A stretch of 64,000 nt of DNA from the NCBI RefSeq assembly GCF_963921235.1, contig NC_086097.1:166472001-166536000 (forward strand), given 5' to 3'. This DNA is from Mobula hypostoma (lineage: Eukaryota). Both the position numbers and the translations under genes were made by a program. Positions 10,278 through 59,989 of this stretch are shown here, one piece after another; position 1 is the first letter of the stretch, and each line of letters begins with the position of its first letter. The notes under the pieces were generated by a model. It saw only the letters and a list, made by a program, of their open reading frames with translations, was not told the origin of the DNA and searched no databases.

Positions 10278-11040
10278 TCACAAACACCACACTATACTAC
10301 ATGTGAAGTGCAAAACTATGATACCCAGTACAAAAAGCCCAATAGTCACTACCCAGTGTGCTACAGTTGTCCACCAACCTCCTGGTGCCCCAAAACACCA
10401 CCAGCTTCCCCCTGGAATGTAACAGCAATGGAACTGGTTCGCCACTTTATTAATCTTATTCACCGACTGTTGGAGGTGATCAATCAGGTGAGTGATGTTC
10501 CCCTATGCATCAGGAATGTTGTGAAGCATGCTTGACGGTTAACAGCACAAGTAACACCATTCTCTGTGGGCAGGCCACCCAATTCTGCAAGGTAACTATA
10601 CTAGCCATACCATACTGGAGAAAGGCTATTATCCAAAACCTTAAACACGAGGAAATCTGCAGGTGCTGGAAATTCAAGCAACACACACAAAATGCTGGTG
10701 CAACACAGCAGGCCAGACAGCATCCTTGGGAAGAAGCACAGTCGACATTTCGGGCCGAGACCCTTTGTCACGAAGGGTCTCGACCCGAAACATCGACTGT
10801 GCTTCTTCCTATGGATGCTGTCTGGCCTGCTGCATTCCACTATCCAAAACCTTTCTGCCTCTGTGATAATCCTCTTACAACGCTGACCATCATGGTCAGC
10901 GTGTTCATCCAGGGGACTGGGATGGTGTTGTAGGGTATTGTAATTGGTGGAAACAGACATAATTCACAACCACCGACATTGAGTTGGGGTTCACTGATGT
11001 GATGCTGAAAACTCACCTTTAACAGACTTTTGGACACCAA
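10278..11040 (-). pseudogene. env: Retroviral envelope (gamma-type TM) remnant
   Basis: After removing the 10643-10853 insertion: furin site RCKR (10882-10871), fusion peptide IITEAERFWIIAFLQYGMA, ISD-like VTLQNWVA (10596-10573), ENGVTCAVNRQACF (degenerate CX6CC), IPD..NITHLI, Trp-rich membrane-proximal region and hydrophobic anchor WVVTIGLFVLGIIVL. Confidence 0.78.
10643..10840. mobile_element. Fold-back mini Penelope-like insertion with 13-bp TSD
   Basis: TSD tatccaaaacctt at 10630-10642 and 10841-10853. Inverted arms 10706-10768 and 10770-10832 (63 bp, 6 mismatches), with the axis inside the hammerhead core. Confidence 0.87.
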
Positions 11041-15084: not shown

Positions 15085-16694
15085 CAGGTTTCCCCCGCCA
15101 TCCGAAGGTAGAGCATTCCTATGAAATGGTTCGTAAGCCGAAATGTCGTAAAGCGAAGAAGCAATTACCATTTATTTATATGGGAAAATTTTGTGAGCGT
15201 TCGCAGGCCCAAAAATAATCTAACAAATCATGCCAAATAACACGTAAAACCTAAAATAACAGTAACATATAGTAAAAGCAGGAATGATATGGTAAATACA
15301 CAGCCCATATAAAGTAGAAATACTTCTCTACAACGATTGCCTGCACAGATCTCTGTAGCGAAAATCTCACGCAAGCGCTCTCGGCAGAAAATCTCACACA
15401 AGCGCTGTTGGCATAAACGCGCTCTCCAGTAACCTTTAAGCTATGAAGCTGCCAAATCTACCAAATAACACATAAAAATACACAGTCTATATAAAGTAGA
15501 AATAATGTATGTACAGTGTAGTATCACTTACGGAATCAGGAAGACAACTTGCCGAGTAAACTGATGATGGTGTGTTAGACTAAGTCGTCGCAGGCTGGGT
15601 AGTGCAGTGGAGCCCACCCTCTGGGCCGCTGACCCAATACATTGCCGCGAAGAACACAGCAGTAGCCGGGAGGCACACAGCACATCTTTAAGAAAAAAGC
15701 CGAAATAAACATGCTAATTAATTAGGTGCCGCCGACACGTAATTGTCGGCCTAGATCAGAGACGACGCAATCGGAAATCGGCACTGATCTGGGCTGACAA
15801 TTACGTGTCGGTTGCACCTAATTAATTAGCTTGTTTATTTCAGCTTTTTTCTTAAAGATGTGCTGTGTGCCTCCCGGCTACTGCTGCATTCTCCGCGAAT
15901 CGATACAGTACCTGTCCGGGGCCCGGGTGTTGGGGTGGTGGGACACGGGGGTGTCATCTCATCATCGATCCCGGCAGACAGCTCATCTTCTCCTATGACT
16001 GCCCGCCTCGATGTTGAAGATTGAGGTTCGTCGTCTGCTGTGGCTGATGTGGAGGACTTGCTTGACTGCTGAGCCTTGCGCATTTTTCTATCATACAGTT
16101 GTTTGTAAGGACTCAAACCATCCTGCAAATATCCCCTAAACCTACATACCCTTTCAAAATTAAAGTCGTACTCTATCATTGCAGCGAAAATCTCACGCAG
16201 TCACTTTCAGTCCGTTCGCTACTGCATTCAGTTTTGATTGTTATCCTTTCCTCTTCCAATTGCATCAGCTCTTCATCTATCAGTTCTTGGTCATGGGATG
16301 CCAAGACCTCTTCAACATCATCTTCGTCAGCTTCCACAAGCCAAACTCACTTTGTCCTTGCTTCGTTCACCACGATCAAAACGCTTAATTATGTCTAGTT
16401 TTACCCTAAATGTAACACCCTTACGAGATCTTTTAGGCTTTTCCAATACCTCAGAACTCATCTTGCTAACGGCTGCTAACAGGCACGTGTTTAAGCAATG
16501 CTGTTCCGAATCCGGGGGCAGAGCGGCTGCTCAGGACGCGAGCTGCCTTTTATCGCGTGCCGATTTTTTATCGCGCGTTGCCTTTCTTTGTAACAGTGAA
16601 AACACCTTCTGAAAGTGAAAACAGGGTACTAATGTAGGTCTTTTGTAACAGTGAGGTTTCGTAAAGCGAATGTTCGAAAAGCGGGGGACACCTG
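15085..16694 (-). mobile_element. Tigger/pogo-type DNA transposon, internally deleted
   Basis: TIRs caggtttcccccgccatccgaa and reverse-complemented caggtgtcccccgcttttcgaa, TA duplication at 15083-84 and 16695-96, transposase C-terminal remnant on the minus strand (ORF 15835-16179). Confidence 0.9.
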
Positions 16695-18479: not shown

Positions 18480-18685
18480 CAAGAGGTTTTGGATGCTGGA
18501 AAATGGAGCAACACACAAAATGCTGGAAAGTCTTGGCAAGATAGGCAAAATCTATCGACTGAAATGAACAGCTGACATTTCAGGTCAAGACCTTGCATAA
18601 GGACTCAACAAAAATCAGTCCAGGTGAAAAATCTTGACTGAAAACATTGACTGTTTATTTCCCCCTATAGATACTGCCTGAACGG
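18480..18685. mobile_element. Old fold-back Penelope-like fragment
   Basis: Inverted degenerate hammerhead remnants cagctgacatttcaggtcaagaccttgcataaggact and agtccaggtgaaaaatcttgactgaaaacattgactg. Confidence 0.55.
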
Positions 18686-20944
18686 CCAATCAGTTTGTAA
18701 ATCTGATAGCAGCGAGAAAGAATTTGTTCTTGAGTCTGGTTGCCTGGGCTTTCAAAATCCTGTACCTTCTTCCACAGGGTGTGACAGAGAAAAGAGAATG
18801 GCCAGGGTGGCAGGCATCATTGTTAATCTTCAGGAAGCAATGCAAAAAAGAAAGACTAGTATTTTAGTAGACTTTCACATTCCTTTAAGGATGACCCAGT
18901 CAATTGAGCTTCTGTGCAAGTTGAACATGTGGTGTTGCAGTCCAATTTGTCAATTGTGACATTAAATCAGGCTCACATGATGACTGACATGATAATCCAT
19001 CAACTCAAAGGACTTTTGGTGTATGAGATCCTCAGACATTCCAGCACACTTCCTAACATGGCATATGGTGTGAATCATGTTGCAAATAAAATGCCAAGAA
19101 TGACAAATTGGCTGGCCCAATACAAGCTAAGTTGGCTCCATAGAAAATGCTGGAAGCCTAGAGTATTTTCAGATCCAAGTTCAAAAGAGGACTACATAAA
19201 TTGATATCCACTCACAGGCATCCTTGACCACACTACAAATGACTAATCATAACAGAATAAACTATGCATGATGGAGTGGTGGAGTTCTGGACCAAACACC
19301 CATTGTTTGATTAATGATTCTTCTGCATTCTGAAGCCTTTTCATTAAAAATCTACATCTCTGAATAGCAAAAAGAGCTTCCTACCTCATATATTTCTAGT
19401 AAGTCATTTTAAAACATATCTGTAAGCTGTTTGGGTGGTGTGATGGATCAAACTGCTTGCATTCCCTATTTCAATGGTACACTCATTCTTTTCCATTGTC
19501 AACCTGTATATGAACTACAGCATCAATGGAGCTAACCCAAGGCAATGATTCACACTCAAACTGACCTCCATGTTTGAAAATTGTTGTGTATGTGACCTGG
19601 TTACACAACAATGCTATTAATAAAAACGCTGGAGACAGGAGCTGAGGTTCATGGTTCCTTACTGGCAGAAACCAAACTCGGCACACATGAACAGGTCAAT
19701 ACACGCCTAACAGCACATGCTCAATACGTGCCTAATAGCGCAAGCAACGACGTGTCCCTACAACATAAAGTAGTCCCTTATTATACAGTAGGCCATACAG
19801 TACAACAACATTTTTAAATAATCATTGCAAGAATCACTTCAGAATCAACTTTACATAACTAAAAACAGATCTAAGATTTCACATGTGAAATGCCAGAGAA
19901 AATAAATAGCATTGTACAGATGAAAGCATGAGTGAACATGGAACATAAAATATAGCAAACCTGCCACACAAAACAGGCCCTTTGGCCCACAATGCTGTGC
20001 CAAACATGTACTTACTTTAGAAATTATCTAGGGTCATGTTTGTCTTGATGCTGGGTTTCAACCCGAAACGTCAACAAATCCTTTCCTCCTGGAGATGCTG
20101 CTCAATCCACAGAGATCCTCCAGCAGATTGTTTGTTGTATGGATGAAAATTGTTTTGAGATAGCATTAACCAATTTTGAATGTTTCGGGGACAGTTAGCT
20201 CCAGCACTTACATCATAAGGACACTTTGTTTAACCTAATGCTATTATTACAGTGTTCAGCTCCCCTCAATTAGCATCAATTGCAGTGTAACACCCACAAT
20301 TTGCTTCTGGCAAGATTCTGCTGACTAGAGCAGCAGAAAAATCTGTCCCTTAACATTATATTTAAGATAATTGAGGCTTATGTTCTTCACTACTGTTTAC
20401 ATGTAAATACCACTGCAATTTCAGTCAAGGGTCGATAACTCTCTTGTGGGAGAATCCAAAAATTGGGTCATAGTTTAAAAATGAAATATTACCCATTTAA
20501 GATGGGAATGAGTCTTGTTATTTTTTTTCTCTTAGAGGGTCAGAGGTCCTTCAAAATCTCTTGTTCAAGGAGAAAAGCAAGCAGAGTACTTTAATATTAT
20601 GAAAGCAGAAGTAGATAGATACTTGATAAGTAAGCAGATGACTAGTTACCATGGAGAAAGAATTGCAGAATTGTGATTACAATTGGATCTGCCCTGACTT
20701 TATTAAAGGCAGAACAGTGCGGGTAGCTTGCTCCTGCTCTTAACTTGTATGTTTGTATAAAATCCAAGAGTTACAAGCAGAGCAATTTTACAAAACTGAG
20801 TCTGCACTAGTTGGCTTATGAAACATCACAGGACTCCTATTCTTGCATGGTAAGATGTGAACTAAAGCTGCAAAATATCATTTTGTTTGTATAAGTACCT
20901 TTTTACAGGTTACTTTGAATAAAAATGAACAAAGAATAAAGGGT

Positions 20945-21855
20945 AAACAACAGGAATTCTGCAGATGCTGGAAATTCAAGCAACATACATCAAAGTTGCT
21001 GGTGAACGCAGCAGGCCAAGCAGCATCTATAGGAAGAGGCGCAGTCGACGTTTCAGGCCGAGACCCTTCGTCAGGACTAACTGAAGGAAGAGTGAGTAAG
21101 GGATTTGAAAGCTGGAGGAGGAGGGGGAGATGCAAAATGATAGGAGAAGACAGGAGGGGGAGGGATAGAGCCGAGAGCTGGACAGGTGATTGGCAAAAGG
21201 GGATACGAGAGGATCATGGGACAGGAGGTCCGGGAAGAAAGACAAGGGGGGGGGTGACCCAGAGGATGGGCAAGAGGTATATTCAGAGGCACAGAGGGAG
21301 AAAAAGGAGAGTGAGAGAAAGAATGTGTGCATAAAAATGAGTAACAGATGGGGTACGAGGGGGAGGTGGGGCCTTAGCGGAAGTTAGAGAAGTCGATGTT
21401 CATGCCATCAGGTTGGAGGCTACCTAGACGGAATATAAGGTGTTGTTCCTCCAACCTGAGTGTGGCTTCATCTTTACAGTAGAGGAGGCCGTGGCTAGAC
21501 ATGTCAGAATGGGAATGGGATGTGGAATTAAAATGTGTGGCCACTGGGAGATCCTGCTTTCTCTGGCGGACAGAGCGCAGATGTTCAGCAAAGCGGTCTC
21601 CCAGTCTGCGTCGGGTCTCACCAATATATAAAAGGCCACATCGGGAGCACCGGACGCAGTATATCACCCCAGTCGACTCACAGGTGAAGTGATGCCTCAC
21701 CTGGAAGGACTGTTTGGGGCCCTGAATGGTGGTAAGGGAGGAAGTGTAAGGGCAGGTGTAGCACTTGTTCCGCTTACACGGATAAGTGCCAGGAGGGAGA
21801 TCAGTGGGGAGGGATGGGGGGGACGAATGGACAAGGGAGTTGTGTAGGGAGCGAT
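20945..21855 (-). mobile_element. Penelope-like element, 5' truncated, with GIY-YIG endonuclease and 3' repeat
   Basis: ORF 21374-21898 FTCESTGVIYCVRCSRCGLLYIGETRRRLGDRFAEHLRSV...QPDGMN. 14-bp TSD aaagaataaagggt at 20931-20944 and 21878-21891. Confidence 0.93.
21043..21078 (-). ncRNA. Minimal type I hammerhead ribozyme motif in PLE 3' repeat
   Basis: Minus strand AGUC-CUGACGA-AGGGUCUCGGCCU-GAAAC-GUC/GACU: stem I AGUC/GACU, intact CUGANGA and GAAA boxes, GUC triplet. Predicted cleavage between 21047 and 21046. Confidence 0.78.
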
Positions 21856-21939
21856 AATAAAGGGTAATAAGGATAATAAAGAATAAAGGGTCATTCATTC
21901 AGGGTTAATTGTTGATGGAAAATGAAACAAGAGGTTTTA

Positions 21940-22332
21940 CAAACAAGAGAAAATCTGTAGATGCTGGAAATCCAAGCAACACTCACAAACTGCAGGAGGA
22001 ACTCAGCAGGCCAAGCGGCATCTATGGAGAAAGTACAGTCGATGTTTTGGGCTGAGACCCTTCAGCAGGACAGCAGAGATCACAAAGGGGGAGCAGTGAG
22101 AGAGGGTTTCACTGAACTCCTATCAAAGGGGCAAGATTTAAACCTCTTCAGAGTAGGCATCCTCTGAAAAGACCTCACAGCATAGTAATCCAATAACAAA
22201 CAAGAGAAAATCTGCAGGTGCTGGAAATCCAAGAAACACACATAATATGCTGGAGGAACTCAACAGGCCAGGGAACATCTATGGAAAAAAGTACAGTCGA
22301 CGTTTTGGGTCGAGATCCTTTAGCAGAACTGG
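21940..22332 (-). mobile_element. Two short Penelope-like 3' fragments (21940-22070 and 22195-22332)
   Basis: aacaagagaaaatctg(t/c)ag(a/g)tgctggaaatccaag...cagtcga(t/c)gttttggg occurs twice; both copies end just past the hammerhead motif. Confidence 0.72.
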
Positions 22333-23476: not shown

Positions 23477-24266
23477 ACATAAAAGTTGCTGGTGAACGCA
23501 GCAGGCCAGGCAGCATCTCTAGGAAGAGGTGCATTCGACGTTTCAGGCCGAGACCCTTCGTCAGGACTAACTGAAGGAAGAGTGAGTAAGGGATTTGAAA
23601 GTTGGAGGGGGAGGGGGAGATCCAAAATGATAGGAGAAGACAGGAGGGGGAGGGATGGAGCCAAGAGCTGGACAGGTGATAGGCAAAAGGGATACGAGAG
23701 GATCATGGGACAGGAGGTCCGGGAAGAAAGACAAGGAAGGGGAGGACCCAGAGGATGGGCAAGGGGTATATTCAGAGAGACAGAGGGAGAAAAAGGAGAG
23801 TGAGAGAAAGAATGAGTGTATAAAAATAAGTAACAGATGGGGTACGAGGGGGAGGTGGGGCCTTAGCGGAAGTTAGAGAAGTCGATGTTCATGCCATCAG
23901 GTTGGAGGCTACCCAGACGGAATATAAGGTGTTGTTCCTCCAACCTGAGTGTGGCTTCATCTTTACAGTAGAGGAGGCCGTGGATAGACATGTCAGAATG
24001 GGAATGGGATGTGGAATTAAATGTGTGGCCACTGGGAGATCCTGCTTTCTCTGGCGGACAGAGCGTAGGTGTTCAGCAAAGCGGTCTCCCAGTCTGCGTT
24101 GGGTCTCGCCAATATATAAAAGGCCACATCGGGAGCACCGGACGCAGTATATCACCCCAGCCGACTCACAGGTGAAGTGTTGCCTCACCTGGAAGGACTG
24201 TTTGGGGCCCTGAATGGTGGTAAGGGAGGAAGTGTAAGGACATGTGTAGCACTTTTTCCACTTACA
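23477..24266 (-). mobile_element. Penelope-like element copy with GIY-YIG (frameshifted)
   Basis: Highly similar to 20985-21780; ORF 23889-24188 GVIYCVRCSRCGLLYIGET. Confidence 0.93.
23533..23568 (-). ncRNA. Hammerhead ribozyme motif with one stem I mismatch
   Basis: Minus strand AGUC-CUGACGA-AGGGUCUCGGCCU-GAAAC-GUC/GAAU. Confidence 0.62.
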
Positions 24267-28002: not shown

Positions 28003-28192
28003 TTACATCTCAAGGAAGAGAACAACACTTTCAAATCTCTTACTAGCTCTTCCTTCAGTTAGTCCTGACGAAGGGTCTCGGCCCAAAATGTCAACTGTAC
28101 CTCTTCCTAGAGATGCTGCCTGGCCTGCTGTGTTCACCAGCAACTTTGATGTGTGTTGCTTGAAATTCCAGCATCTGCAGATTTCCTTGTGT
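28003..28192 (+). mobile_element. Penelope-like 3' fragment with CpG-decayed hammerhead
   Basis: agtcctgacgaagggtctcggcccaaaatgtcaact at 28061-28096 (GAAAC changed to AAAAT). Confidence 0.82.
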
Positions 28193-54756: not shown

Positions 54757-55630
54757 TCAAAATAAACTTTATTCAGAAAATGCAATAAAATCAGTATATT
54801 TTTTATCACATTCATAGTGTCATCAAGCCATTATAAGTATTTATTTTATTAACAAAATAAATTTTATTCACAACAATTTACAAGAATAAAACATTCAATG
54901 CCTTTACATTCTTCACAGACCTGGTCAATACTTTCCATAGTGCTGCCACTCATGAAGGGTCTCGGCCTGAAACGTCGCCTGTACCTCTTCCTAGAGATGT
55001 TGCCTGGCCTGCTGCGTTCACCAGCAACTTTGATGTGTGTTACTACCATAACTGAGGAGCTTTCTCACCCACCCGGCCCCTCCATCTCCAGCAGAAGAAG
55101 AACCCTAAACTGTGGTCGTTCCCCACCAAGCCTTTGTGGTGGCTGTGCCAAGATTCAGTGTGTCCCTCAGCTTGGAACATGCCAGTCGGCAGCATTCTGC
55201 CACAGACATCTCGATACGCTGGTAGACCAACAAGTCCCAGGCTGACCAAAGAGCACCTTTCACTGAGTTGATGATCTGCCAGCAGCACCTGATGTTTGTT
55301 TCCATGTGCATCCCAAGGAGCAACCCGTAGATCAGAGAATCCTCTGCTTGGGATGAAATGTGACACTGGCCCTTTCATCTTCCTCCACACCTTCTTTGCA
55401 AACCCAGTGTGCAAAGAGATGAGTTACTGTTTCATCTCCATTGTAGTCATCCCGTGGACAGCATGTTGTATGGCTGATGCTCTGAGCACACAGTAAGGAC
55501 CTGACTGAGAGGGCCTCTCTCATCGTCAGTCAGGGTTGGTCTTGGTGCCTGTTGGTAAGACCTGGCGATGAAGCAAAGCCGAATGCATTGACCACTTGGA
55601 ACCCTGGAACTGATGCCAATCGGCTGGTGT
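54757..55630 (-). mobile_element. L1/Tx1-like LINE 3' end, with a PLE fragment at about 54949-55041
   Basis: C-terminal zinc-finger-like CPRDDYNGDETVTHL and IINSVKGALWSA..LLVYQ...CCRLA; AATAAA-containing tail on the minus strand. Confidence 0.72.
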
Positions 55631-56331
55631 TAAGTAAGCATATCCTAGACTTGTGCAGACTCACCTGAAATTTAGGAAGATCCAAGTAATAAATTTCAAC
55701 AGATCTATATTCAGTTCCAACATTTATCCAAAGCTGGACAATTCAGGATTTTCCAGTCTTAATTCAGGAATTCACTCTGTAATCCAGGTTAGGAGACAAA
55801 TTTGGAGATTGGTGAACAACATTTTTACACACTTTGTTTTAGTGAGCTTCACTTTCATTTTATAAGTACTTACAACAATTTTAATAGTTTTAAAGTATCT
55901 CTGGTCAGAAACACATCCTTGCTTCTGTTAAGAGGAAAGGTCAACCTTGTCGTCTTGTCAGTGCGTTCGTGTCCTGAGGTCTACCTAACTAGTAGCTTTT
56001 CTGGAACTACCACAGTGGAGATTCAGCTGATTTTGGCCAACCTATGTGAAAGAGGGCAGGAACATCAAGTGGTGAGTCTGTGCAACAAGTTTTGTTTAAC
56101 CCCTTGTTAACTTGACCCATTTAGTTTACTGAGAGCAGGATGGCTGAAAGCAGCCAAAGACAAAAGGAATACTTTTGTTTTCATTTGCACTTAGATTTTA
56201 TTTTAATAATAGATAGTTGTTCTCTTTCAGAACCTTTGTGTTAGTCACTATTAAACATATTCTTGTCACTCATGATTCACAACTGTCCCACAGTTGGGCT
56301 TCCATTTACAAAACAAATTCCCTACAATTAA

Positions 56332-56545
56332 AGTTGCTGGTGAACGCAGCAGGCCAAGCAGCATCTATAGGAAGAGGCGCAGTCGACGTTTCAGGCCGAG
56401 ACCCTTCGTCAGGACTGACGAAGGGTCTCGGCCTGAAACGTCGACTGCGCCTCTTCCTATAGATGCTGCTTGGCCTGCTGCGTTCACCAGCAACTTTGAT
56501 GTGTGTTGCTTGAATTTCCAGCACCTGCAGAATTCCTGTTGTTTG
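56332..56545. mobile_element. Fold-back mini Penelope-like insertion with 14-bp TSD
   Basis: TSD ttccctacaattaa at 56318-56331 and 56546-56559. Perfect 83-bp inverted arms 56330-56412 and 56415-56497 with a 2-nt spacer. Confidence 0.92.
56381..56416 (-). ncRNA. Minimal hammerhead ribozyme motif (complete on minus strand; the plus-strand copy 56415-56446 lacks the 5' strand of stem I)
   Basis: Identical to the motif at 21043-21078. Confidence 0.75.
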
Positions 56546-56774
56546 TTCCCTACAATTAACCCCACTTCAAGCCCCTATTCAACCACTCTCATATTTATGC
56601 CAAGTGCTTAAAGCCCTTCTCTGTCATCAAAGTGATAACATTAAGACCGAGGTAACAGGGTGTTTTTAAAAAAAAACTAGAATCACAAACGACTACATAA
56701 ATTTCAGAGACCTTAATAAGCAGTAAAATTATGGCACAGCATTTGGAATAACACGAGGTGGTGACTTTCTGAAA

Positions 56775-57072
56775 CTTTTTAAAGTTAAAGTCTGTCCCGA
56801 GCCTTGTGGCCCATCAGGCTGGTGCTTATGCCGGTTTCTGTGGCGTGAAGCGGCTGAGAGTACGAGACTACCCCCCCCCCACCAGATAGGACGCCAGTCT
56901 ATCGCAAGGTTGACCCCCAGCATTTGCCGGTACCCATTTTCAGCTGGGTGGACTGGAGAATTGTGTGGTTAAGTGCCTTGCTCAAAGACACAACATGCTG
57001 CCTTGGTCGAGACTCGAACCCACAACCTTCAGATCGTGAGTCCAACGCCCTAACCACTTGGCCACGCGCCAC
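56775..57072 (-). mobile_element. tRNA-derived SINE, full length, with Meta-like central domain
   Basis: A box tggccaagtgg, B box ggttcgagtc, central ttgagcaaggcacttaacc...cacccagctgaaaatgggtacc; 11-bp TSD actttctgaaa at 56764-56774 and 57073-57083. Confidence 0.87.
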
Positions 57073-57114
57073 ACTTTCTGAAATTTCATGTTCAGTATTT
57101 CTCGTGTGGCCTTA

Positions 57115-58575: not shown

Positions 58576-59989
58576 AACATTCTGTTTTAATTTAAATGCA
58601 AATTTACATTTTCCAGTTACTAATCAACTTGTTAGAGGAAACAATTTCAACTTTGTTGTTCTATCAACCACCCTAATATTTCAAATGCATTTAATAATTT
58701 TCTATTTATTCTCTTCTAAGTAGGACTATCCCAGCTCTCATTCACTCACTAACAATTAACCTAATTTATAACTTATCTCTATAGTCACATTAGACTTACC
58801 CGATCAGAAATATCCCCCTCCCCTATTCTCCCTGCTGCCAAATCATCTCTGTTCATTTCCTCCTATAGATACTCTGACCCACCAAGCTCCTCCAGCAGTT
58901 TCTGTATTTCCTCCGATTTCAGCATTTGCAGTCCCTGTGTCTCTCTTTTGCTACCTTCTTGTTCTGAGAAAGGGTTTTTTGACCTGAAACATTATCTGTT
59001 ACCCTACCCACAGATGTAGTCTGATCTGCTGAGTGTTTTCTGTTTTATTTTAGAACTTGAAAGGGGCTTTGGGGGCAAAAAAAAAATACCCAGGCTATGA
59101 CAGGAAGAAACATAGAAACAGAAGATGAATTATTCTCCGTGGGCACATAACTCCCTTCAGCATTTGAGACAATGTACTAATTCAAAGATGTTTATCTCCT
59201 TTCTCAAAATGCACGGGGAATAGAAAACAACTCTTCTCCGCAGGTTGTTGAAATATCCATTATGCATTTGGAAATATAGTAAACAGCCAATGCAGTATGA
59301 CACAAGTAATAAAGGAGCAGAGAAGCAGAAATCTGCAAATAAAAGCAACACAATAATAGAAACAGTCCATTGAATGAAGTCAGATAATGGGCTTGTTATC
59401 ATTAATTATATTTCAGATCCTAGAAACAGCGTTTAACATATCATTAATATATCAGTATTAACATATAATCCTTCTCCAAAGTTAGAATTTTAGGTGAGAG
59501 GGGCAACAATGTGCAGGAAAGGTTTTTTTTTACACAGAGAGTGATAGTTGCCTGGAACATGCTGCTGGGAAGTGGTGGAAACGGACACAATAGTATCATC
59601 TAAGAGTTTGTTCAGACATACATGTGAATATGCTGAAAATGGAAGGATATGGACTAGGTGCAGGCAGAGAGACTTAAGTTAACTTGGCATTGTGTTCAGT
59701 GCTGACACTGTGTGGTGAAGCTGGTGAAGAGCTTTACTTTGTGCACTTACCCATGTGTAAAAGATGTCACTCTTTTATATATAAAAGACCCTGCATGGAA
59801 TGTTTATTTCCTTCGTTCCCCTTTCCATGTAAAAATAAAATGCTATAATATTGCATACCAACTCAGTAGTAACCTTTTATTTTTTCCATCGCATCCCCAG
59901 TCTTTTCATGATAAACAATGTTTTAATATTCTCCAGTTTAGGAATTACTATTATCTCTAAGAGAATTATGGGTTCATTTTAGTTTGACT

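Follow-up and report, generated by a model that had tools for sequence, protein, structure and literature searches.

The 214-nt insert at 56318-56559 is best read as a recent, lineage-specific insertion of a very abundant PLE of the Neptune/Nematis type, in its smallest head-to-head form, which we infer to have arisen by the joining of two cDNAs; to this reading we assign a probability of about 0.68. All coordinates refer to the window, i.e., the whole 64-kb stretch of DNA that was analyzed.

Architecture of the Insert

Based on sequence comparison, the insert is composed of two 5′-truncated PLE 3′ ends placed head to head, with a tail on one of them only. Its arms (56330-56412 and 56415-56497) are exact reverse complements, matching at 83/83 positions across a GA spacer; the palindrome scan returns an inverted-repeat match of 86 nt at 99%, in which perfect pairing stops after 83. 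The insert, 214 nt between the TSDs, is bounded by the 14-bp TSD TTCCCTACAATTAA at 56318-56331 and 56546-56559, which cannot be extended on either side, and this 14-mer has two occurrences in the 64-kb window, both of them flanking the insert. The last two bases of the left TSD copy (AA, 56330-56331) are also the first two bases of the left arm and thus form a microhomology with it, and the right copy (56546-56559) is a sequence match to the left one. At the empty site, as seen in runs X5 and X9, the TSD is present in a single copy.

Next to the left TSD copy lies the inverted PLE arm without a tail (56332-56416, minus strand), which is identical at 87/87 positions to 20992-21078 of the PLE copy at 20945-21078. 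With positions numbered from C3 of the hammerhead core as +1, its outer (3′) end lies at +83 to +85, neither of the usual family ends, and its inner (5′) end lies at -2 to -4. The direct arm (56415-56545, plus strand) is 5′-truncated at +1 to +3, reaches the long 3′ end of the family, and is identical to the 20945 copy at 128/130 positions, tail included. The axis (56413-56416) consists of the GA spacer, native to the inverted arm, and a 2-nt microhomology (CT/AG) common to both arms, while the 35-nt tail (56511-56545, plus strand) belongs to the direct arm only and fills the interval between two common family 3′ ends. The orientation of the endonuclease ORF in the 20945 copy identifies the right arm as the sense PLE 3′ end and the left arm as the inverted copy. 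The region 56300-56580 is predicted to fold at -196 kcal/mol (z = -23), with 0/200 shuffles equally stable. The exact 83-bp arms, the GA spacer, the 14-bp TSD, the 214-bp insert length and the near-exact match to the PLE at 20945-21078 had been described in the sequence-only reading of this DNA, and all were verified.

Parent Family and Its 3′ Ends

The reference copy of the parent family (20945-21898, minus strand) comprises the GIY-YIG endonuclease end with a CX4CXXC linker (21374-21898), a pyrimidine-rich 3′ UTR, the hammerhead and the tail, and the insert is 98-100% identical to its 3′ end. The ORF at 21374-21898 (minus) matches PF01541 with E = 2.5e-4 and 21.7 bits, just below the cut-off of 22.6, and its linker, CKRNKCYTC, fits the CX2-5CXXC definition. 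Such a linker upstream of GIY-YIG defines the Neptune/Nematis type in the relevant part of PMC8557442. On the strength of the linker and the GIY-YIG match, the parent is classified as an endonuclease-bearing PLE of this type.

Within the 64 kb, 29 stretches match the 3′-end profile of the family. Both long copies in the window are 5′-truncated within or near the endonuclease, the RT region lying outside the window. These copies, 20945-21898 and 23477-24266 (both minus), are 95.6% identical over 792 nt and 1.6 kb apart, and the latter ends at +88 without a tail. Older hammerhead-bearing ends also occur as direct-orientation pairs at 21941-22331 (minus) and 58849-59034 (plus); the members of the pair near 22 kb are about 257 nt apart, a retrozyme-like layout that could form a dimer.

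Contigs from four of 24 sequencing runs were aligned on 55800-57100; of the four, X1 is the run of the best-matching organism and may be the sample the window came from. Contigs of other copies exit the element at 56510/11 and 56545, where they pile up, the pile at 56545 being present in all four runs; the loose ends in X1 amount to 132 contigs at 56511 and 142 at 56545, and X5 is similar. The copy at 54948-55044 in the window ends at the short 3′ site. The one-sided tail of the insert is thus bounded by two family-wide 3′ ends, as in inverted-pLTR insertions, and its 35 nt lie within the 30-40-bp range of PLE tails, whereas the left arm starts 13 nt inside the shorter family 3′ end. At contig depth, another high-copy repeat is apparent at 56768-57075, with a tRNA-like end on the minus strand, which we take to be SINE-like. 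In the portions of the published work drawn on here, a 30-40-bp tail at one end is a PLE signature (PMC3846280, PMC11167929), which in PAc is linked to two internal RT start sites (Frangieh et al., PMC11167929).

Hammerhead Motifs

The minimal-hammerhead pattern matches both strands of the palindrome. On the minus strand, pattern and fold both indicate a minimal type-I hammerhead (56381-56416) with stem I AGUC/GACU, CUGACGA, stem II, GAAA and a palindromic ACGU in place of stem III; its activity is predicted, with a cut between 56385 and 56384. On the plus strand, a second core (56415-56446) matches the pattern without the 5′ strand of stem I, which is broken (AGGA/GACU), and its predicted cut lies at 56442/56443. 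The pattern search therefore agrees with the earlier description of a catalytic core on each strand with stem I complete on the minus strand only. By pattern, the minus-strand motif shows the CUGANGA core, GAAA, NUH site and helix I of min-HHRs, together with a palindromic 15.2-16.2 (ACGU) and an extra base before helix II, namely an unpaired A in the predicted stem II fold.

The conserved G10.1-C11.1 pair is absent, and stem II closes with G.U (or A-U). The youngest subfamily (56434, 56393, 21055) has G.U at this position; older copies, e.g., 10643 and 28065, retain the C. The spread of the G.U subfamily would be in line with cleavage being dispensable. In Rfam, no family reached the gathering score anywhere in the 64-kb window, and no hammerhead-family match was present in 56250-56650, even below threshold; the best below-threshold matches in that region are miRNA hairpin models, which were dismissed as generic hairpin matches.

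The insert had been called ribozyme-centered, a term that holds by position; however, the axis lies 28 nt upstream of the predicted cleavage site, at a point where a pyrimidine tract also ends. An axis at the ribozyme cut was dismissed on this distance of 28 nt and because, among the best 15 of 331 head-to-head joints described below, an end at the cut occurs in 1/15.

Proposed Mechanism of Formation

In the two-cDNA mechanism, the GIY-YIG nuclease of the element would cut both target strands 14 bp apart. The nick in the bottom strand would prime a cDNA at the usual long start, +131, to give the arm with the tail, and the nick in the top strand would prime a second cDNA internally, at +83 to +85, via the 2-nt microhomology AA. 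Synthesis of both cDNAs would halt at the hammerhead 5′ edge; annealing of the cDNA 3′ termini (...AG and ...CT) through 2 nt, followed by fill-in, would then generate the palindrome inside one TSD. As both arms extend across the cut site, the RNA serving as template would have been uncleaved. The hairpin would be a by-product of insertion.

Priming on the target is consistent with the 14-bp TSD and with the microhomology at the left outer end of the insert. As far as the published texts are drawn on here, PAc nicks and extends both target strands, with a predicted protein dimer and mainly uncleaved RNA as the template (PMC11167929), and twin priming predicts microhomology at the outer and inversion junctions (PMC2912911). 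Against the two-cDNA model, the arms of the insert overlap by 83 nt, whereas the overlaps reported for L1 twin priming are only 1-10 bp (PMC11702581, in part). Because of this overlap, either two RNAs or strand displacement would be needed, and identical arms cannot distinguish between the two.

The preferred stop is most simply attributed to the enzyme entering the pyrimidine tract, in which the RNA:DNA hybrid would weaken, with an RNA 5′ end at that point as the alternative. Per 10 nt, the hybrid energy is -10 to -11 kcal/mol from -40 to -1 versus mostly -13 to -16 from 0 to +79, and the pyrimidine share is 0.79 upstream of the hammerhead 5′ edge and 0.58 downstream. However, equally weak hybrid windows also occur at +40 and +80, which counts against a stop caused by hybrid weakness, and two copies in the window end upstream at -37 and -42, which counts against a sharp stop. 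If the ribozyme fold caused the stall, ends would be expected 3′ of it, a pattern that is not seen. A short intron ending at helix I, in the manner of D. virilis Penelope, was also rejected: acceptor-like letters are present, but a donor of the form GTRAG, GTAA or GTGA was not found in the 3′ UTR (21400-20945). In the covered parts of the reports on D. virilis Penelope, a 75-nt intron follows 46 nt after the start (PMC2377424), and the end of this intron abuts helix I (PMC4209133).

Alternatively, an antisense RNA or cDNA could have served as a free template, its 3′ end folding back and being extended to a hairpin, which was then integrated and trimmed by a nuclease at one end, leaving a one-sided tail. 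Such self-priming has been proposed for exactly this kind of head-to-head palindrome (Arkhipova et al. 2013, in the part of PMC3846280 concerned). It predicts a spacer with antisense-arm polarity, which is what is observed; a single template suffices and fits the 83/83 identity of the arms, and a weak natural hairpin (UCAG...CUGA) spans -10 to +4. However, that hairpin would leave a 6-nt spacer, GACTAA, instead of GA, and its stability does not exceed that of shuffles (z = -0.28 as RNA and -0.04 as DNA); priming at the actual junction would depend on 2 bp closing a 2-nt loop, and the clean TSD with its left outer microhomology fits target priming instead. We consider this route unlikely. Snap-back of a cDNA still attached to the target was dismissed for the 56318-56559 copy on polarity and loop size. 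Snap-back would assign the loop to the arm that starts normally, whereas GA is native to the tail-less arm, and it fails since this arm is unable to template the extra 48 nt. Self-annealing would require a 2-nt loop at the axis of the insert and a 1-nt loop at 10769.

Recurrence and Clustering of Junctions

Among 12 copies in the window tested for an inverted partner, four beat all 200 shuffles and three are clear fold-backs (at 56415, 10770 and 18481-18686), which differ in spacer, outer ends and age. The second, older head-to-head pair (10643-10840) has arms that are 87% alike, a 13-bp TSD, TATCCAAAACCTT, and a tail on one arm; its axis lies inside CUGA, with inner ends at about +2/+3 and +4/+5. 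The third pair (18481-18686) is much older, with nhmmer E-values of 5.8e-26 and 1.3e-7 for its arms and an arm-to-arm score of 42, above all 200 shuffles; both of its inner ends lie at AGTCC with 11 nt between them, and it has no clear TSD. This fold-back had not been mentioned in the sequence-only reading. At 28028, an inverted match of 15 nt exceeded the shuffles (26 vs 24), yet was excluded from the fold-back count. An unrelated palindrome at 15646-15897, with 120-nt arms that are 91% complementary and 12 nt apart, gave no hammerhead-family match. The head-to-head core pattern has 17 matches in metagenome contigs, none of them hammerhead-family (best nhmmer E 0.41), and 0 matches in viral contigs.

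Contigs of other copies contain 331 head-to-head joints. The best 15 of the 331, chosen by support and thus non-random, all run antisense then sense and represent 15 different junctions with 0-4 shared letters. The longer arms of these 15 end at -4, -4, -4, -3, -2, -2, -2, -2, -1, +1, +3, +8, +9, +12 and +19, i.e., 11/15 within -4 to +3, for which a uniform null of 0.13 each gives a binomial probability of 1.4e-7; excluding three rows at the edge of the reference, 8/12 lie within this interval (1.1e-5). Because selection of the rows was by support and the reference hides any ends upstream of -4, these figures indicate enrichment relative to +4 to +110 but do not establish a sharp peak. Of the 14 arms measured in the window, 10 end between -13 and +11, and the others at -704, -42, -37 and +47; in older copies, divergence of the upstream sequence may give the impression of an end at the hammerhead. 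The earlier suggestion that junctions favor the hammerhead 5′ edge is borne out by both sets of ends. Richness in microhomology was dismissed as the cause of the clustering, as partners at these positions were no richer than elsewhere. The accumulation of head-to-head joins at the start of the ribozyme motif is the mildly new point of this analysis; it was not found in print in the literature listings searched.

Among the best 15 of 331, several joints have 3-10 times single-copy depth and are common to X1 and X5, which may reflect hot spots or limited copying of fold-backs. The deepest joins 56384 to 56417 and reaches roughly 10-fold single-copy depth in X1; one of its arms ends at +29 to +25, and it carries a 4-nt microhomology. 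With the predicted cut at +28/+29, this range takes in the position at which the 3′ cleavage product would begin, and the microhomology explains the joint equally well.

The clustering also allows a more speculative reading, which we regard as doubtful, namely that the PLE RT makes a strong stop. The RNA would begin or be blocked at the hammerhead 5′ edge, so that initiation at +96 or +131 would give a run-off cDNA of 100-135 nt, and the dimer-forming hammerhead, rather than cutting, would hold two RNAs together within the particle so that each target nick has its own. Analogous to retroviral strong-stop DNA and the dimeric genome, such a process would be compatible with the ends of 11/15 joints (best 15 of 331) and 10/14 window arms near that edge and with the 83-nt overlap of the arms of the insert. 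It would also agree with the letters from -10 to -1, which contain short motifs that we take to be Inr-like (TCAGTT, TTAGTC) or splice-acceptor-like. If the reading were true, a single intermediate would have three outcomes, namely solo ends, head-to-head palindromes and pseudo-LTRs. No statement of this reading was found in the literature listings searched.

The sequence-only reading had further proposed a recurrent class of ribozyme-centered fold-back elements, and one could envisage a non-autonomous fold-back unit that spreads by being copied to new sites. The axes of the three fold-backs in the 64 kb lie within about 10 nt of each other, and the multi-copy junctions common to two organisms would agree with such copying. 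However, the three cases in the window differ in spacer, outer ends and age, there are 331 distinct joints, the best 15 of which are all different, and the arms track the young autonomous copy (87/87 and 128/130) and not the older fold-backs. The comparison of junctions thus yields differences in 3/3 window cases and in the best 15 of 331 joints, with some joints in multiple copies; copies with the exact junction of the insert are collinear with the reference and hence outside this count. A self-copying unit is improbable in our view. The recurrence of head-to-head copies (3/12 window copies tested, 331 joints) stands, whereas a separate class is not supported, as junctions and outer ends vary and the layout is the published PLE pattern.

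As an object, the insert is ordinary, being one of very many copies; its value lies in being a clean specimen. A set of young, TSD-flanked head-to-head insertions lets junctions, microhomologies and arm pairs be counted. Such counts could decide between the preferred joining of two cDNAs and self-priming, and on a fixed RT stop at the ribozyme.

Hairpin RNA and Host Context

Head-to-head PLE insertions seed the genome with perfect dsRNA hairpins. If the insert is transcribed, the duplex is predicted to outcompete the hammerhead, as forcing the hammerhead fold would cost 58 kcal/mol in the hairpin versus 9 in the native copy; the predicted energies thus favor the earlier proposal that the hairpin would mask the ribozyme. 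Furthermore, a minimal hammerhead needs a direct partner to act as a dimer, as stated in the part of PMC4209133 used here. Conditional on transcription, use of the hairpin by Dicer or ADAR is plausible, with the siRNAs from inverted Penelope regions in Drosophila as a precedent (PMC3681739, in part). Run X15, which is RNA by guess, has no cover of 55844-56283 and is uninformative on expression.

No host gene was identified around the insertion site by homology and Pfam searches. Three candidate host-gene matches proved to be repeat-summed artefacts or unrelated, and a Pfam scan of 86/127 ORFs of at least 55 aa in 42000-64000 gave one weak match (E 0.0026, below the cut-off). An exon-like frame is present at 55934-56110 (plus), 245 nt left of the insertion. 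In organism B, 4/4 substitutions in 55934-56071 lie at third codon positions and are silent, the frame having been fixed beforehand; however, the GT at 56072 is changed in organism B, which counts against the exon-like frame. No homolog of the 46-58-aa frame at 55934 was found. If the exon is real, the hairpin would sit in an intron or 3′ UTR.

Retention of the hairpin for silencing of the PLE family, via siRNA or editing, appears very improbable. An 83-bp perfect duplex would form from either strand, siRNAs match inverted Penelope regions in transgenic Drosophila, and the lack of a break at the TSD in X1 suggests that both haplotypes carry the insert in that sample. However, the insertion arose after lineages differing by about 2% in the flank had split, the siRNAs did not silence Penelope efficiently according to the same portion of PMC3681739, and the vicinity is without an identified host gene. 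Since such hairpins arise routinely, one more is unlikely to matter.

Reality and Age of the Insertion

Two X1 contigs, 55800-56352 and 56519-56803, have 0 differences from the window at depths of 16.7 and 18.3, respectively, and cover both outer junctions. Among the matches listed, no contig spans the axis; as the X1 contigs run from unique flank into oppositely oriented arms, the inversion must lie inside. The empty site was observed in two related organisms. In X5 (organism B), a 1278-nt contig joins 56317 directly to 56546, with one TSD copy and 12 differences in 518 nt of flank, and in X9 (organism C), a contig joins 56327 to 56557, again with one TSD copy. The insertion is young, given these empty sites, and it postdates a split of about 2% flank divergence. 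The youth of the insertion and its derivation from the neighboring PLE family, both claimed from the sequence, are thus upheld by the empty sites in X5 and X9 and by the near-identity to the 20945 copy. An assembly artefact at a palindrome-prone repeat is scarcely credible, for although none of the contigs listed crosses the axis and X1 is possibly the source sample, independent contigs enter the antisense arm on the left and leave the sense tail on the right with 0 differences, and two other organisms carry, as a single copy at the empty site, the same 14 bp as the TSD.

Comparison with Known Systems

The comparisons below refer to the portions of the cited sources covered here. Non-LTR retrozymes (bioRxiv 10.64898/2026.07.22.740005) are likewise short non-coding hammerhead units derived from PLE terminal repeats. 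However, retrozymes are direct tandem units, each with a complete hammerhead and capable of forming an active dimer, whereas the units of the insert are inverted, their motifs are masked, and one is without helix I.

The min-HHRs of metazoan PLEs (Cervera and De la Pena 2014, PMC4209133) likewise have a 4-bp helix I, an extra base before helix II, no helix III and a palindromic 15.2-16.2. In contrast to these motifs, the insert has a short helix II closing with G.U and one core without helix I, and its activity is predicted. Close dual hammerheads on opposite strands have been reported in Schistosoma (PMC4209133); the cores are 2 nt apart in the insert, as opposed to about 100-700 bp in those dual motifs.

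Analogous to the proposed mechanism, L1 twin priming (Kojima 2010, PMC2912911; PMC11702581) involves a second internal cDNA primed from the other target end, with microhomology at both junctions and an intact TSD. However, L1 inversions cover adjacent parts of the RNA, with an overlap or gap of 1-10 bp, whereas the same 83 nt are copied twice in the insert. In PAc (Poseidon of Anolis carolinensis, in vitro, Frangieh et al. 2024, PMC11167929), two RT starts about 100-150 nt downstream of the hammerhead define the tail, as they appear to do here, and the nicking and extension of both strands with uncleaved RNA is likewise proposed for the insert. The two systems differ in that the family described here has the CX2-5CXXC linker of Neptune/Nematis and one arm starts at neither usual site; head-to-head products are absent from the covered text of the PAc study.

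The closest layout is that of PLE insertions such as Pen2a_Av of Adineta vaga (PMC3846280, PMC8557442), in which an inverted 5′-truncated copy lies head to head with a direct one across a junction palindrome. In such insertions, one TSD likewise surrounds the whole, a 30-40-bp tail is present at one end, and the inverted arm is shorter than the direct one. The association of the junction with the hammerhead 5′ edge is a feature of the insert on which the covered text of both papers is silent. PLE insertions typically combine an inverted pLTR with a palindromic junction, one TSD and a tail at one end (PMC3846280, PMC8557442), and the insert agrees with this structure in having head-to-head 5′-truncated copies inside one TSD. 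In contrast to Pen2a_Av-type insertions, however, it is without an ORF, its arms are cut to 85 and 131 nt, and the whole of it is palindrome; the 56318-56559 insert is thus the smallest form of the published PLE insertion layout.
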